Below are positions 5,744-58,242 of a stretch of DNA of 64,000 bases, in pieces. The notes beneath the pieces are model-generated. The model did no database searches. It was not told the DNA's origin and saw nothing but the letters and a program-made list of their open reading frames with translations. This stretch comes from Escherichia coli (GTDB lineage Bacteria > Pseudomonadota > Gammaproteobacteria > Enterobacterales > Enterobacteriaceae): the NCBI RefSeq assembly GCF_003334405.1, contig NZ_QOWM01000001.1, one strand, 5' to 3'. The position numbers and the translations under genes are program-made. The first letter of the stretch is position 1; each line of letters starts with the position of its first letter.

Positions 5744-8700
5744 TTAGTCATTTTTCTGACAGAAAACAGCAATCTCCTGGTCCAGCTCTGCAATGTGTTC
5801 TTTTACAGAGTTCAGCAACTGAAGAATTTCAGGCTTACTGTCATCTGAAACAGGTGTTATTTCTAACTGATGGCTAATATTAATCAACTTTTGCAAATTC
5901 AGGATGTTAGCCGCACCGTGGATGCGATGAATACACTGATGGAAAGTTCTGTTATCGCCAGCTTCTAGTGCTTGAAACGCAGCGGGTAGATCTTTATGCG
6001 TTTCATGCTGGAAAGTCATGAGAATCTCCTGCATCAGTTGTAGATCGTTCGCCGTATTATTTTTCAGGGCTTCGATATCAAGGTGGCGATACTGAGGTGC
6101 AATATGCGCAACTTGGTGTAACTGACTTAAATGTGTTTTCAGTACATCCAGGGTCAACGGTTTGAACAAACATAAGTTCATGCCGCAACTTAACCCTTTT
6201 TCACGTTCGTTAGCCTGTGCGTTGGCTGTAAGCCCCCAGATGGGTAAGGAAGAATTTTGCTCACGGAGTTTGCGAGTCAACTCAAAACCATCCATATTCG
6301 GCATATTAACGTCAGTAATAAGCAGATCATAATGTTGCATACTGACTTTGTGTAGCGCTTGCACACCATCAGTGGCTTCATCAACATCATATCCTAATAG
6401 ATTTAGCTGGCGTTTGAGTAATAGCCTGTTGGTCGGATGATCATCCGCGATTAATATGCTCAACTTTTCAGGTAGTGTGATGGGTTGTTCTGCTTTTGCC
6501 TCGACAGTCGCCACTTGCTGGCTAATTTCTACCGGGATTGTGATCGTAAATGTTGTTCCTATGCCTGGATGACTTTCTAATGACAAATCGCCCTGCATAT
6601 TTTTAATTAATTCTTTGCAGATCATTAAGCCTAAACCAGAACCTGTTTGCTGACGACCTGCACTTGTTTGGCTGTAGCGTTTAAACAGTTGTTGTTGTTC
6701 TTCCTGCGATAATCCACTTCCAGAATCCATAATCGTCATTTTGATAACAGCGTGGTTGTCATCAATGTGACCCAGGGAGGTCGTAATTTTTACTGCCCCC
6801 TCGGTGGTAAATTTGAGAGCATTACTCAGTAAATTTGATAAGACCTGCTTAAACGCCTGAGGGTCGATCTTAACCAGGTAATGTTCAGGAAACGTACTGC
6901 TGCAACTTAATGCGATCGATTTGCTTGCAGCAATCGCACCGAAAGAGTGACAAGTGTTCTGGACTAAAGTAGGGATATCGACCCATTGTGGTTGAAGTTG
7001 ATAGTTACCCGATTCAATTTTGTCGACATCAAGGATTTCACCAATTAAGCCGAGGAGTGATTGTCCGGTGGCGTAGGCAAGTGAAATCGCCTCCACCCGT
7101 TGCTCCTTGCTAAGACCAGAACCCGACAGAAGTTCCAGGAAGCCCATAATAGAGCTTATTGGTGTTCTTATTTCGTGACTCATCGTTGCCAGAAACTGAC
7201 TTTTTGCTACGGTAGCCTTTATCGCTTTATTTTTTTCTACCTCGAGTGCATTAATTAGATCACGCGTTTCAGTAATATCTTGCCAACCACAAATATATAC
7301 TGCATTGTCACTTGCAGGAAGATTGCATAATGTATGCCAGTGATTAATGCATCTTTTCTCGATGCCATTATCAATTTCAAATACCTGTGTGTATATTGTT
7401 CGATTTTCTTTCGTTTCTGCTGTGACTTCATGCGCATTAGAAAAAACATCTTTAAAGGGTGAGTCACTGTTTTCTAATGGTAACATTGCATTTTTGTAGT
7501 AATCCGCAGTGAAATAATGTTCAAAAGCACTATTATGACTAATGACATTACCTTGCCAGTTTACAACATAAGTTGGATTCGGTAAGGAATCCGAGAGTGC
7601 TTTTCGGAATGATATTTGGTTTTCTAAATCACCCTGAATGACTTTACGACGACGAACTGAGCGTAACAGGTAGAATCCCCATAAAAGGCTACTGCCAACT
7701 AATAAAACGGATAATGTCGTAACAATATAAAATTGCTCGCTATATAGGTCCCATGTGTCAATGGTCACATTGGGCATTTTAATCCATTTTTCCGTCAGGC
7801 GCAGAACTTCGCTTGGGGGAATTGCATTCAGTGCTTTATTAATAATATCCTTAAGTTCCGGTTCTCCGCGAGGAAAAGCGAACGAAAGCGATGCATTCGG
7901 AACGCCAGGAATAAGAAAATGATAAAGTTCATTAGGATAGTAATGATCGATCATGTAACGCGAATTTAGCTGTGTCGCGACCAGAGCATCAAGTTCACCT
8001 TCCTTAACCTTGTGAAATGCAGCGCTGGCATTATCGACCTGTATCCATTCAACCTCCGGATACATCTCTTTTAATTGCGAATGCAGCTCATAATAATATG
8101 GAATGGCAACTTTCATTCCTTTTTTTAATGTTTGTTCACTGTCAGGCGCTTTTTGCATGACAAAAACGTAAGGCGTTGTTATGAAGGCTTCAGCAAATAA
8201 AACATTATTTTCTCGATCTTCACTATAAATAGCGCCAGGTATTATATCCCATCCTCCGGGGCTAAGCTGTGTTCCAGCATGGATATTGTGTGAAACGGTG
8301 ATCGGAGAAAAATTTAAACCTGTTTGCAAGGTAATAATATTAAGAATGTCCCCCATAACGCCCCGAACCGAGCCATTTTCATCCGTCATAGAATAGGGGG
8401 GCGAGTAAGGATTTTCCAGCACCTTTAAATTGGGATGCTGCTTAATCCACTGTTTTTCATGTTCAGTGAGTTCTAATGGTTTGTTCAGAAAGGCCAGGTT
8501 TCCTGTATCAAGCCAATTTTGTGATACTTCATAGCGAACTTCATTTGTTAAAGCATCAACAAATCTATTGAGTACTTCATTAAGAATGACAGATTCTTTT
8601 CTGGTCAAGAAAAAATTATATTGACGCGGCGAGTTATAATATTTCACTACATTTAAGGAGTGAGTGAAATAGCGGGAAATCATACTGCTGGTAATGATGT

Positions 8701-51798: not shown

Positions 51799-52450
51799 GT
51801 TTCAGAATCGGTTAGTGGGCACGATCGTGCTGGTGGCGCTGGGGGTGATTGTACTTCCAGGGCTGCTGGACGGGCAGAAAAAACATTATCAGGATGAGTT
51901 CGCGGCTATCCCGCTGGTGCCGAAAGCGGGCGATCGTGATGAGCCTGATATGATGCCAGCCGCCACCCAGGCGTTACCGACGCAGCCGCCGGAAGGCGCA
52001 GCGGAAGAGGTGCGGGCAGGTGATGCCGCAGCACCGTCGCTCGATCCGGCCACTATTGCAGCCAATAACACCGAGTTTGAACCGGAACCTGCACCGGTCG
52101 CCCCACCGAAGCCGAAACCGGTGGAGCCGCCTAAACCAAAGGTTGAAGCACCACCTGCGCCGAAGCCAGAACCGAAGCCGGTCGTGGAAGAAAAAGCTGC
52201 ACCGACGGGTAAAGCCTATGTTGTGCAACTGGGTGCGCTGAAAAATGCCGATAAAGTGAATGAGATTGTCGGTAAGCTGCGCGGTGCCGGTTATCGGGTT
52301 TATACGTCGCCATCCACGCCAGTGCAGGGTAAAATTACCCGTATTCTGGTTGGGCCGGATGCCTCGAAAGATAAGCTGAAAGGTTCGCTGGGTGAGTTGA
52401 AGCAACTTTCTGGCTTAAGTGGCGTGGTAATGGGCTATACGCCGAATTAA
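51788..52450 (+). CDS. dedD: Cell-division protein DedD (SPOR domain)
   Basis: Start placed at GTG 51788 (VASKFQNRLVGTIVL, 220 aa); Pro/Lys-rich linker and C-terminal SPOR-like domain; overlaps the folC 3' end. Confidence 0.8.
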   Translation: MASKFQNRLVGTIVLVALGVIVLPGLLDGQKKHYQDEFAAIPLVPKAGDRDEPDMMPAATQALPTQPPEGAAEEVRAGDAAAPSLDPATIAANNTEFEPEPAPVAPPKPKPVEPPKPKVEAPPAPKPEPKPVVEEKAAPTGKAYVVQLGALKNADKVNEIVGKLRGAGYRVYTSPSTPVQGKITRILVGPDASKDKLKGSLGELKQLSGLSGVVMGYTPN

Positions 52451-52458
52451 TACGGTCT

Positions 52459-52545
52459 TGCCTGATGCGACGCTGGCGCGTCTTATCAGGCCTACGCAGG
52501 GGTAGAACCGTAGGTCGGATAAGGCGTTTACGCCGCATCCGACAC
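52459..52545. repeat. BIME: two inverted REP elements (GCCTGATGCGACGCTGGCGCGTCTTATCAGGCCTAC and GTAGGTCGGATAAGGCGTTTACGCCGCATCCGACAC)
   Basis: Canonical REP consensus matches between dedD and cvpA. Confidence 0.75.
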
Positions 52546-52579
52546 GCATTGCCCGATGCCGCAAAGGCATAAAAAGTCG

Positions 52580-54845: not shown

Positions 54846-55415
54846 ATGAAACGACTCATTGTAGGCATCAGCGGTGCCAGCGGCGCGATTTATGGCGTGC
54901 GCTTATTACAGGTTCTGCGCGATGTCACAGATATCGAAACGCATCTGGTGATGAGCCAGGCAGCGCGCCAGACCTTATCCCTCGAAACGGATTTTTCTCT
55001 GCGCGAAGTGCAGGCATTAGCCGATGTCACGCACGATGCGCGCGATATTGCCGCCAGCATCTCTTCCGGTTCTTTCCAGACGCTGGGGATGGTGATTTTA
55101 CCCTGTTCAATCAAAACCCTTTCCGGCATTGTCCATAGCTATACTGATGGCTTACTGACCCGTGCGGCAGATGTGGTGCTGAAAGAGCGTCGCCCGTTGG
55201 TGCTCTGCGTGCGTGAAACACCATTGCACTTAGGCCATCTGCGTTTAATGACTCAGGCGGCAGAAATCGGTGCGGTGATTATGCCTCCCGTTCCGGCGTT
55301 TTATCATCGCCCGCAATCCCTTGATGATGTGATAAATCAGACGGTTAATCGTGTTCTTGACCAGTTTGCGATAACCCTTCCTGAAGATCTCTTTGCCCGC
55401 TGGCAGGGCGCATAA
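54846..55415 (+). CDS. ubiX: Flavin prenyltransferase UbiX
   Basis: 189-aa ORF MKRLIVGISGASGAIYGVRLL. Confidence 0.92.
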   Translation: MKRLIVGISGASGAIYGVRLLQVLRDVTDIETHLVMSQAARQTLSLETDFSLREVQALADVTHDARDIAASISSGSFQTLGMVILPCSIKTLSGIVHSYTDGLLTRAADVVLKERRPLVLCVRETPLHLGHLRLMTQAAEIGAVIMPPVPAFYHRPQSLDDVINQTVNRVLDQFAITLPEDLFARWQGA

Positions 55416-55596
55416 CTCCGCTGTTGCCCTGTTTCAGGGCAATTTTGCAACCGCGATCAAATCCTCGACATTTTGTTTCTGCCATTCAATCGAAACGCTG
55501 CGATTCAACCGCTATACCTGCTATCTTCAACTTCAGGACAATAATGCAACGTCTTATTAACATATTTAACGTTGAATGTTACTGTTGTCGTCAAGA

Positions 55597-55612
55597 TGGC
55601 ATAAGACCTGCA
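55597..55612 (+). promoter_or_regulatory. Candidate sigma-54 promoter (TGGCAT-N5-CTGCA; GG and GC 12 nt apart) upstream of argT
   Basis: Matches the -24/-12 consensus TGGCAC-N5-TTGCA with two mismatches; about 70 bp upstream of the argT start. Confidence 0.45.
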
Positions 55613-55680
55613 TGAAAGAGCCTGCAAACACACAACACAATACACAACATAAAAAAGCCATTTTCACTTGAGGGTTATGT

Positions 55681-56463
55681 ATGAAGAAGTCGATTCTCGC
55701 TCTGTCTTTGTTAGTCGGTCTCTCCACAGCGGCTTCCAGCTATGCGGCGCTACCGGAGACGGTACGTATCGGAACCGATACCACCTACGCACCGTTCTCA
55801 TCGAAAGATGCTAAAGGTGATTTTGTTGGCTTTGATATCGATCTCGGTAACGAGATGTGCAAACGGATGCAGGTGAAATGTACCTGGGTTGCCAGTGACT
55901 TTGACGCGCTGATCCCCTCACTGAAAGCGAAAAAAATCGACGCTATTATTTCGTCGCTTTCCATTACCGATAAACGTCAGCAGGAGATTGCCTTCTCCGA
56001 CAAGCTGTACGCCGCAGATTCTCGTTTGATTGCGGCCAAAGGTTCACCGATTCAGCCAACGCTGGATTCACTGAAAGGTAAACATGTTGGTGTGCTGCAG
56101 GGATCAACCCAGGAAGCTTACGCTAACGAGACCTGGCGTAGTAAAGGCGTGGATGTGGTGGCCTATGCCAACCAGGATTTGGTCTATTCCGATCTGGCTG
56201 CAGGACGTCTGGATGCTGCGTTACAAGATGAAGTTGCTGCCAGCGAAGGATTCCTCAAGCAACCTGCTGGTAAAGATTTCGCCTTTGCTGGCTCATCAGT
56301 AAAAGACAAAAAATACTTCGGTGATGGCACCGGTGTAGGGCTACGTAAAGATGATGCTGAACTGACGGCTGCCTTCAATAAGGCGCTTGGCGAGCTGCGT
56401 CAGGACGGCACCTACGACAAGATGGCGAAAAAGTATTTCGACTTTAATGTCTACGGTGACTGA
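55681..56463 (+). CDS. argT: Lysine/arginine/ornithine periplasmic binding protein ArgT
   Basis: 260-aa ORF with signal peptide; paralogue of the downstream hisJ. Confidence 0.9.
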
Positions 56464-56521
56464 TACGTCGCTGGGAAGCTGTACCTGATGGAATGATCAT
56501 CATGGTGCACGCCAGGTTTGT

Positions 56522-56538
56522 TGCACTATCGTGGTGCA
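56522..56538. promoter_or_regulatory. Candidate NtrC binding site (TGCACTATCGTGGTGCA) upstream of hisJ
   Basis: 17-bp dyad TGCAC-N7-GTGCA as in glnAp2-type NtrC sites; read directly. Confidence 0.4.
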
Positions 56539-56683
56539 TTGAAATGCATACTTAAGCATTTTTAATGAAAAATAATACGTCTAACGGGGCGGGATATTTT
56601 GCCTTGATGGTCAATTTTATGGCACGATAAGTGTAACAAACCTGTAAATATTCCCTATAAAAAGACTGTCAGTTGAGGACATT

Positions 56684-57466
56684 ATGAAAAAACTGGTGCT
56701 ATCGCTCTCTCTGGTTCTGGCCTTCTCCAGCGCAACTGCGGCGTTTGCTGCGATTCCGCAAAACATCCGCATCGGTACCGACCCGACCTATGCGCCATTT
56801 GAATCAAAAAATTCACAAGGCGAACTGGTTGGCTTCGATATCGATCTGGCAAAGGAATTATGCAAACGCATCAATACGCAATGTACGTTTGTCGAAAATC
56901 CGCTGGATGCGTTAATCCCGTCCTTAAAAGCGAAGAAGATTGACGCCATCATGTCATCGCTTTCCATTACGGAAAAACGTCAGCAAGAAATAGCCTTCAC
57001 CGACAAACTGTACGCTGCCGATTCTCGTTTGGTGGTGGCGAAAAATTCTGACATTCAGCCGACAGTCGAGTCGCTGAAAGGCAAACGGGTAGGCGTATTG
57101 CAGGGCACCACCCAGGAGACGTTCGGTAATGAACATTGGGCACCAAAAGGCATTGAAATCGTCTCGTATCAGGGGCAGGACAACATTTATTCTGACCTGA
57201 CTGCCGGACGTATTGATGCCGCGTTCCAGGATGAGGTCGCTGCCAGCGAAGGTTTCCTCAAACAACCTGTCGGTAAAGATTACAAATTCGGTGGCCCGTC
57301 TGTTAAAGATGAAAAACTGTTTGGCGTAGGGACCGGCATGGGCCTGCGTAAAGAAGATAACGAACTGCGCGAAGCACTGAACAAAGCCTTTGCCGAAATG
57401 CGCGCTGACGGTACTTACGAGAAATTAGCGAAAAAGTACTTCGATTTTGATGTTTATGGTGGCTAA
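56684..57466 (+). CDS. hisJ: Histidine periplasmic binding protein HisJ
   Basis: 260-aa ORF with signal peptide, upstream of hisQMP. Confidence 0.92.
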
Positions 57467-57555
57467 TCGCCATCGGTGAAAGAAAGCCCGCTCCCTTCGG
57501 GTAACCGGAGGGAGACAAGAGGCGGTAATTCACCACACACGACAGGACAGGCAGC

Positions 57556-58242
57556 ATGTTGTATGGGTTTTCAGGTGTTATTTTACAGGGTGCGCTCGTC
57601 ACGCTGGAGCTGGCTATCAGCTCTGTAGTGCTCGCTGTAATCATCGGTTTAATTGGCGCTGGCGGTAAGCTCTCGCAAAATCGGCTTTCGGGGCTGATTT
57701 TCGAAGGGTACACCACGCTGATTCGTGGCGTGCCGGACTTAGTGTTGATGCTGCTGATTTTCTACGGTTTGCAGATTGCGCTAAACACGGTGACGGAGGC
57801 GATGGGCGTCGGGCAGATTGATATCGATCCGATGGTCGCTGGTATTATCACTCTCGGTTTTATCTACGGTGCTTATTTTACCGAAACGTTCCGTGGTGCT
57901 TTTATGGCAGTGCCGAAAGGACATATAGAGGCGGCGACGGCGTTCGGTTTTACTCGTGGGCAAGTGTTTCGGCGGATCATGTTTCCGTCGATGATGCGTT
58001 ACGCCCTGCCAGGCATTGGCAACAACTGGCAGGTGATCCTCAAATCTACCGCACTGGTTTCGTTACTCGGCCTGGAAGATGTGGTCAAAGCCACCCAACT
58101 GGCAGGCAAAAGTACCTGGGAACCGTTCTATTTCGCCATCGTCTGTGGCGTGATTTACCTGGTTTTCACCACTGTTTCCAATGGTGTGCTGCTGTTCCTT
58201 GAGCGCCGCTACTCCGTGGGTGTGAAGAGGGCTGACCTGTGA
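57556..58242 (+). CDS. hisQ: Histidine ABC transporter permease HisQ
   Basis: 228-aa permease with EAA-like loop. Confidence 0.92.
   Translation: MLYGFSGVILQGALVTLELAISSVVLAVIIGLIGAGGKLSQNRLSGLIFEGYTTLIRGVPDLVLMLLIFYGLQIALNTVTEAMGVGQIDIDPMVAGIITLGFIYGAYFTETFRGAFMAVPKGHIEAATAFGFTRGQVFRRIMFPSMMRYALPGIGNNWQVILKSTALVSLLGLEDVVKATQLAGKSTWEPFYFAIVCGVIYLVFTTVSNGVLLFLERRYSVGVKRADL

Follow-up and report, generated by a model that had tools for sequence, protein, structure and literature searches.

The argT–hisJQMP locus of Escherichia coli lies on the + strand of a 64,000-nucleotide stretch of DNA (the window; contig NZ_QOWM01000001.1) and very probably carries there the known nitrogen-regulated (Ntr) control region described for strain K-12, together with the targets and the mechanism proposed below. 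The region was recognized as ubiX–argT–hisJ–hisQMP from its open reading frames (ORFs) and the K-12 annotation, and it has a match in every one of the 5,426 complete E. coli genomes. Between positions 55416 and 56686 of the window the sequence is 100% identical to that of K-12 MG1655, window position x corresponding to 2483472 − x in U00096.3 and to 2481494 − x in U00096.2. The original prediction, made from the letters of the sequence, had placed a σ54-type element, TGGCAT-N5-CTGCA, ahead of argT and a 17-bp dyad, TGCAC-N7-GTGCA, in the 220-bp argT–hisJ spacer, and both are present exactly as it described them. The two sites and the genes that they flank are as follows.

55597–55612, + strand: argTp, σ54 (−24/−12) promoter, TGGCATAAGACCTGCA (sequence match, published σ54 binding, conservation)
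55681–56463, + strand: argT coding sequence, lysine/arginine/ornithine-binding periplasmic protein (ORF and K-12 annotation)
56522–56538, unstranded: binding dyad for NtrC (GlnG), TGCACTATCGTGGTGCA (consensus match, binding in vivo, conservation)
56684–57466, + strand: hisJ coding sequence, histidine-binding periplasmic protein (ORF and K-12 annotation)

The promoter element reads TGGCAT-AAGAC-CTGCA, with the GG (55598–55599) and the GC (55610–55611) exactly 10 bp apart, as the σ54 motif demands, in surroundings that resemble TGGCAC-N5-TTGCA; it is on the correct strand, and its final base is 69 bp 5′ of the argT ATG (55681). Chance expectations were estimated for the predicted patterns in the 64-kb window, both strands being searched. 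The σ54 pattern is expected 0.28 times per window and occurred at least once in 25 of 100 shuffles, so that alone it is not significant. Independent support comes from its score of 14.8 bits, the second highest among the approximately 128,000 window positions examined, with a position weight matrix (PWM) built from 41 published E. coli intergenic σ54 motifs from which argT had been omitted. These motifs came from chromatin immunoprecipitation followed by sequencing (ChIP-seq). For comparison across species we drew on a collection of species-representative genomes, one scan of which recovered 80 Enterobacteriaceae loci, all with ubiX–argT–hisJ synteny; both intergenic regions were aligned across 81 Enterobacteriaceae sequences, seven of them from Escherichia, and counts below are per 81 sequences or species. 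The −24/−12 element of argT is kept in all 81, at 12.7–17.4 bits.

That σ54 binds at this element is known from published data. The ChIP-seq site OS22 upstream of argT (motif ATGGCATAAGACCTGCA, centre 2425890 in U00096.2, FAT 12; Bonocora et al. 2015) maps to window positions 55596–55612 and is base-identical to argTp, and the ubiX–argT spacer is among the targets of RpoN holoenzyme identified by genomic SELEX (gSELEX), at 55–61% (Shimada et al. 2021). In Salmonella Typhimurium, in which the element is identical (TGGCATAAGACCTGCATG), σ54 binding to that sequence was detected by ChIP-chip, argT expression showed a 3.5-fold ratio of wild type to ΔrpoN under a promiscuous activator, and argT was counted as one of four experimentally known σ54 operons (Samuels et al. 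2013). Dependence of argT on σ54 and NtrC has been described for both E. coli (PMC6640053) and Salmonella. Thus, 55597–55612 is the σ54 promoter argTp, to which RNA polymerase–σ54 is bound as a closed complex.

The evidence for the dyad is of the same kind. It reads TGCAC-TATCGTG-GTGCA and agrees with TGCACC-N5-GGTGCA at 11 of 12 positions (the consensus quoted for Salmonella is TGCACC(A/T)4TGGTGCA); the predicted dyad pattern is expected 0.07 times per window by chance. In nitrogen-starved E. coli, NtrC ChIP-seq peak 12, ‘hisJQMP’ (23.7-fold, 2424941–2425021; Brown et al. 2014), corresponds to window positions 56473–56553 and encloses the dyad. The 21 NtrC-bound transcription units that were up-regulated in nitrogen starvation in that study include both hisJQMP and argT. 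Given these published data, NtrC binds 56522–56538 with high affinity and is present there when cells are starved of nitrogen. Our literature search yielded nothing further in the way of higher-resolution NtrC data (ChIP-exo).

Spacer dyads are also conserved. With a threshold of at least 9 of the 12 positions of TGCACC-N5-GGTGCA, NtrC-like dyads were found in 80 of 81 orthologous spacers (mean 2.05, versus 0.07 in shuffles), their distances to an invariant TGGCAC near hisJ being fixed at approximately 89, 111, and 141 bp. Orthologues of the E. coli dyad are conserved mainly in the right half, GGTGCA. Most other genera have two or three dyads, whereas the Escherichia spacer is without approximately 21 bp that in most of them, and in Salmonella, is retained and in most holds the third dyad; the single good dyad of E. 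coli now stands 91 bp from TGGCAC. An NtrC enhancer should offer two or more neighbouring sites on which the active oligomer can nucleate; in E. coli the good dyad is accompanied, 29 bp away centre to centre, by an 8/12 site at 56493–56509, which forms part of a further feature:

56480–56509, unstranded: imperfect 30-bp inverted repeat, TGTACCTGATG...CATCATGGTGCA, with arms that are NtrC-type half-sites (alignment and NtrC scan)

The right arm of the repeat (GGTGCA, 56504–56509) is conserved, and in several genera a full NtrC dyad (‘site I’) is found here. We considered the repeat as a conserved RNA hairpin or terminator and rejected it: it folds only modestly (−18 kcal/mol, z −1.95), shows next to no covariation, and has no U-tract. 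No Rfam family matches 55300–57700.

Both sites had therefore been located already, with single-base precision, by genome-wide binding studies in the same strain and by the work on Salmonella: for argTp and NtrC peaks 12 and 13 of K-12 the DNA is the same and nothing differs. What was found re-derives from sequence the textbook Ntr regulation of the basic-amino-acid transporter and adds nothing new to it. A refinement of this classic regulon, rather than a new kind of system, would lie in the division of labour among the NtrC enhancer in the spacer, argTp, and a third, probably decayed element near hisJ.

The original prediction had ascribed NtrC/σ54 control to argT and hisJ alike. Binding of σ54 at the argT element and of NtrC over the dyad was borne out by the published ChIP-seq on identical K-12 DNA; regulation of hisJ from a σ54 promoter of its own did not gain the same support, published work on that gene describing σ70 and ArgR. 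The prediction had also missed two things, the hisJ-proximal element and the absence of a canonical NtrC dyad upstream of argTp. The hisJ promoter region contains the following.

56620–56635, + strand: σ54-like element TGGCAC-GATAA-GTGTA, TGGCACGATAAGTGTA (PWM and alignment; the 17-mer ATGGCACGATAAGTGTA is 56619–56635)
56543–56581, unstranded: putative ArgR operator, two 18-bp ARG-box-like sequences 3 bp apart, AATGCATACTTAAGCATT / AATGAAAAATAATACGTC (best tandem match)
56599–56628, + strand: putative σ70 promoter PhisJ, −35 TTGCCT (56599–56604) and extended −10 TGgCACGAT (56620–56628) (ArgR spacing of 17 bp, invariant blocks)

The σ54-like element is the σ54 candidate nearest to the dyad (argTp is approximately 0.92 kb away); it ends 49 bp 5′ of the hisJ ATG, and its GG is 91 bp downstream of the dyad centre. 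Its PWM score, 12.5 bits, is the fifth highest in the window. The GG is present, but at −12 all seven Escherichia sequences have GT in place of the GC required by GG-N10-GC, and GTGTA at this position is confined to Escherichia in the 81-species alignment. About 29 of the 81 species have a fully canonical orthologue of it. The version in Citrobacter, Franconibacter, Pseudocitrobacter, and several more is TGGCACGATAACTGCA (or the same with a final T), scoring 17.5–18.5 bits (TGGCACGATAACTGCA 18.3). The element is not in the published E. coli σ54 ChIP-seq tables and supplements or the gSELEX lists, absence from a list being weaker than a direct negative assay, and hisJ is not among the σ54 sites or regulated operons named in the text of the Salmonella ChIP-chip study (Samuels et al. 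2013). In Escherichia the element would be at best a weak σ54 promoter.

Meanwhile, E. coli hisJQMP has been described as being transcribed from a σ70 promoter that is weakly repressed by ArgR bound 17 bp upstream of the −35 (PMC6640053). No other tandem pair in the spacer matches as well as the ARG-box-like sequences at 56543–56581 (24/32, a score reached at only 3 of the 63,960 positions in the window). Exactly 17 bp separate their end from the conserved TTGCCT, and their core, TGCATAgTTAAGCA, is nearly invariant across the alignment. Invariant too are the blocks TTTGCC and TGGCAC(G/A)(A/T)T. Given this spacing and these blocks, PhisJ is likely to consist of TTGCCT and the extended −10 TGgCACGAT. 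A simple consensus scan returned no σ70 promoter in either intergenic region. The σ54-like element would thus overlap the ArgR-controlled σ70 promoter, and a role as extended −10 would account for the invariance of TGGCAC(G/A)(A/T)T, which extends to the 35 species in which the −12 half is unusable.

The locus can be compared with other known systems. Salmonella has, in the NtrC region upstream of hisJ (‘dhuA’), a near-perfect dyad at the orthologous position (TGCACTTTTTTGGTGCA in subspecies arizonae and TGCACCATTTTGGTGCA in subspecies diarizonae), and its hisJ-proximal element, TGGCACGATAGCCGCA, retains the −12 GC (CCGCA), in contrast to the GTGTA of E. coli. At glnAp2, the paradigm of an NtrC enhancer with a σ54 promoter, 17-bp TGCACC-N5-GGTGCA dyads lie approximately 80–140 bp upstream of GG-N10-GC, at whole helical turns, and the spacer resembles it in this respect. 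Unlike glnAp2, argTp is without such upstream dyads, whereas hisJ has the dyads but, in E. coli, a promoter half that is non-canonical and not detectably bound by σ54. The overlapping σ70 and σ54 promoters of Salmonella glmY and glmZ provide a precedent for competition between holoenzymes, which has also been reported for argT and may apply to hisJ. In contrast to the full overlap at glmY and glmZ, the argT σ54 site occupies +6 to +22 relative to the σ70 start, and the overlap at hisJ is putative.

In the mechanism that we favour, which draws on what is established for NtrC and σ54, phosphorylated NtrC would oligomerise under nitrogen limitation on the dyad and the neighbouring half-site, reach σ54 holoenzyme through DNA looping, and open the promoter with ATP. 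The only σ54-occupied promoter of the locus would be argTp, transcription from which probably continues into hisJQMP, the spacer being without a terminator. To judge from the geometry, the dyad's partner would be the hisJ-proximal element, which is probably the ancestral one and which in Escherichia would have lost its −12 GC and one flanking NtrC site. When activation is lacking, σ54 at argTp also dampens an overlapping σ70 promoter.

RNA levels and the structure of the spacer are relevant to this mechanism. A scan found no terminator-like site above chance in the argT–hisJ spacer, several papers treat argT–hisJQMP as one operon, and RNA sequencing (RNA-seq) showed argT, hisJ, hisQ, hisM, and hisP rising together 4- to 6-fold without σ54 (Schaefer et al. 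2015). Several observations weigh against the simple Ntr interpretation. Another data sheet of the same file has hisJ RNA 3- to 5-fold above argT RNA in some conditions, so that a separate promoter for hisJ is clearly also present; the joint rise and the hisJ excess together fit a transcript shared with argT and, in addition, independent initiation at hisJ. The sole NtrC ChIP signal at argTp, peak 13 ‘argT’ of Brown et al. (2014), which falls at window positions 55553–55633, right on the σ54 element, is weak (5.4-fold) and was called by hand. Upstream of argTp the usual interval, −80 to −150, contains no canonical NtrC dyad, and no dyad in the E. coli ubiX–argT region reaches 9/12. Finally, the promoter function of either element in this exact strain is taken from the literature.

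The classical alternative takes the dyad as the upstream activating site of a functional hisJQMP σ54 promoter at 56620–56635, nitrogen control being exerted there and independently of argTp. We regard this as possible but somewhat doubtful. The geometry is that of the textbook, 91 bp separating the GG from the centre of the dyad upstream of it; the element ranks fifth of some 128,000 positions, on the correct strand and just ahead of hisJ; its TGGCAC is invariant and the whole is canonical in over a third of the species (about 29 of 81); and Brown et al. (2014) listed hisJQMP as a separate NtrC-bound, induced unit. Known promoters such as pspA and pspG function with TTGTA at −12. Against this reading, the Escherichia −12 half, GTGTA, is without GC; the element appears in none of the E. 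coli σ54 ChIP-seq and gSELEX lists consulted, nor hisJ among the Salmonella sites named in the text of that study; other PWM matches in the window score higher (14.3 and 13.8 bits) and are likewise not listed as bound; and PhisJ is described as σ70 dependent (PMC6640053). A different resolution would make the spacer NtrC cluster mainly or additionally an enhancer of argTp, looping to it from approximately 0.9 kb downstream. NtrC enhancers work over kilobase distances and from downstream, as studies of glnAp2 have shown. This reading, which we consider unlikely, draws on the contrast that runs through the alignment: spacer NtrC sites are conserved in 80 of 81 sequences, the adjacent σ54 half-site is not, and argTp is invariant (81 of 81) yet without a canonical NtrC dyad at the customary distance upstream, where only a handful of other species have one. 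Neither the number nor the quality of the spacer dyads depends on how good the −12 half near hisJ is (rho 0.13, p 0.24), and the 35 species scoring below 10 bits at that element still keep approximately 2.1 dyads. The distribution of NtrC points the same way, being strong on the dyad and weak directly at argTp. In all 12 operons common to Brown et al. (2014) and Bonocora et al. (2015), argT included, the called NtrC peak is centred −11 to +48 bp from the centre of the σ54 motif, on the promoter and not at the NtrC sites upstream; the hisJQMP peak is the single exception, lying on the dyad, 114 bp upstream of the σ54-like element. The independence of dyads and −12 half, the lack of an upstream dyad at argTp, and the place of the hisJQMP peak fit poorly with a purely local model and are compatible with a spacer cluster that acts in part, at least, on argTp. 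Against action at such a distance, loss of GlnK still had an effect on an argTp fragment placed at the lac locus (2.4-fold, versus 3.2-fold natively; the limits of the fragment are not given), the fixed spacing of the dyads from the hisJ-proximal TGGCAC argues for local coupling, and a dyad in the ubiX terminator could serve as a weak upstream site. Salmonella argT promoter fragments are, in addition, understood to be nitrogen-regulated on their own. The strongest form of this idea holds that in Escherichia the hisJ-proximal promoter has decayed (GC to GT, with one NtrC site deleted), leaving a strongly occupied ‘orphan’ NtrC enhancer whose main job, throughout the Enterobacteriaceae, is to activate the invariant argTp from approximately 0.9 kb downstream, across argT; this we think quite improbable. 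Were remote action true, the spacer might be a natural example of a bacterial enhancer that acts from downstream and over intragenic distance.

Two further explanations were considered. NtrC might directly modulate the σ70 promoter PhisJ or the ArgR operator, as repressor, anti-repressor, or architectural protein, with no part played by σ54. It is well placed to do so, as the dyad ends 5 bp before the putative ARG boxes and approximately 60 bp upstream of the putative −35, and the genome-wide E. coli lists nowhere report σ54 binding at hisJ. NtrC represses σ70 promoters such as glnAp1 and glnLp. This is nonetheless very unlikely: the literature that we examined contains no experimental hint of it, the dyad is upstream of PhisJ rather than overlapping it, and hisJQMP goes up, not down, under nitrogen starvation. 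It is scarcely credible that the motifs are chance matches, or that the dyad does no more than supply the stem for a hairpin or terminator in the RNA at the 3′ end of argT. The frequency of the σ54 pattern taken alone is in keeping with chance, and any NtrC dyad can form a 6-bp hairpin, with the neighbouring repeat at 56480–56509 folding as noted above; but the published ChIP data, in which both sites are bound in vivo by their cognate proteins, contradict such an explanation, as do the strong conservation of both sites and the failings of the repeat as a hairpin (no U-tract, the z score, minimal covariation, and no Rfam match).

The Ntr interpretation thus preferred leaves several features upstream of argT to be described.

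55425–55441, unstranded: hairpin/dyad TGCCCTGTTTCAGGGCA, followed by ATTTTG, the probable intrinsic terminator of ubiX (RNA fold and conservation)
55557–55585, + strand: putative σ70 promoter of argT, −35 TTAACA (55557–55562), 17-bp spacer, −10 TACTGT (55580–55585), start near 55591
55626–55650, + strand: C/A-rich part of the argT 5′ leader, ACACAACACAATACACAACA, a sequence type targeted by the small RNA GcvB (sequence and published target list)

The hairpin, directly past the ubiX stop codon, folds at −15.1 kcal/mol (z −2.95), and its stem is conserved across genera with symmetric changes. It is also the sole recurrent NtrC-like dyad upstream of argT, matching at 8/12 in E. coli and at 9/12 or more in approximately 45 species; in Klebsiella and Raoultella the match is 10–11/12. 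The distances that separate it from the argT GG cluster at 165 or 195–196 bp.

As for the σ70 start of argT, the σ54 motif was placed at +6 to +22 of it, and σ54 was found to repress that σ70 transcription in vitro (Schaefer et al. 2015). We assign the hexamers TTAACA and TACTGT to this start from the sequence, which would put the σ54 site just 3′ of it; in the alignment the −35 is conserved between genera and the −10 is not. Strongly conserved blocks are seen upstream of argTp at 55445–55475 (TTTGCAACCGCGATCAAATCCTCGACATTT), at 55496–55530 (CGCTGCGrTTCA...CTGCTATCTTC), and at 55545–55575 (TGCAACGTyTTATTAACAtATTTAACGT), the last of which includes the putative −35, TTAACA. None of the three matched the consensus sequences with which they were compared (NtrC and, by eye, IHF). 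The gene argT is listed as a target of the R1 seed of GcvB, verified in Salmonella and conserved in E. coli, and the length of the C/A-rich part of its leader differs among genera.

Downstream, in the hisJ–hisQ spacer (57486–57513), a strong stem-loop, CTCCCTTCGGGTAACCGGAGGGAG, forms part of a larger fold (−31.8 kcal/mol, z −4.6). In published RNA-seq, hisQMP RNA is 3- to 7-fold below that of hisJ, and hisQ is a reported GcvB target.

Finally, we note other σ54 signals in the window. A published gSELEX peak of RpoN (2429072 in U00096.2) maps to the dedD–cvpA spacer, at approximately 52400–52560, which has repetitive extragenic palindrome (REP)-like sequences; no σ54-like motif was found under this peak upstream of cvpA, the best match scoring 6.7 bits. 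The best PWM match in the whole window, CTGGCATACATTATGCA (7324–7340, − strand, 17.9 bits), is the published intragenic ChIP-seq site IS29 in evgS.

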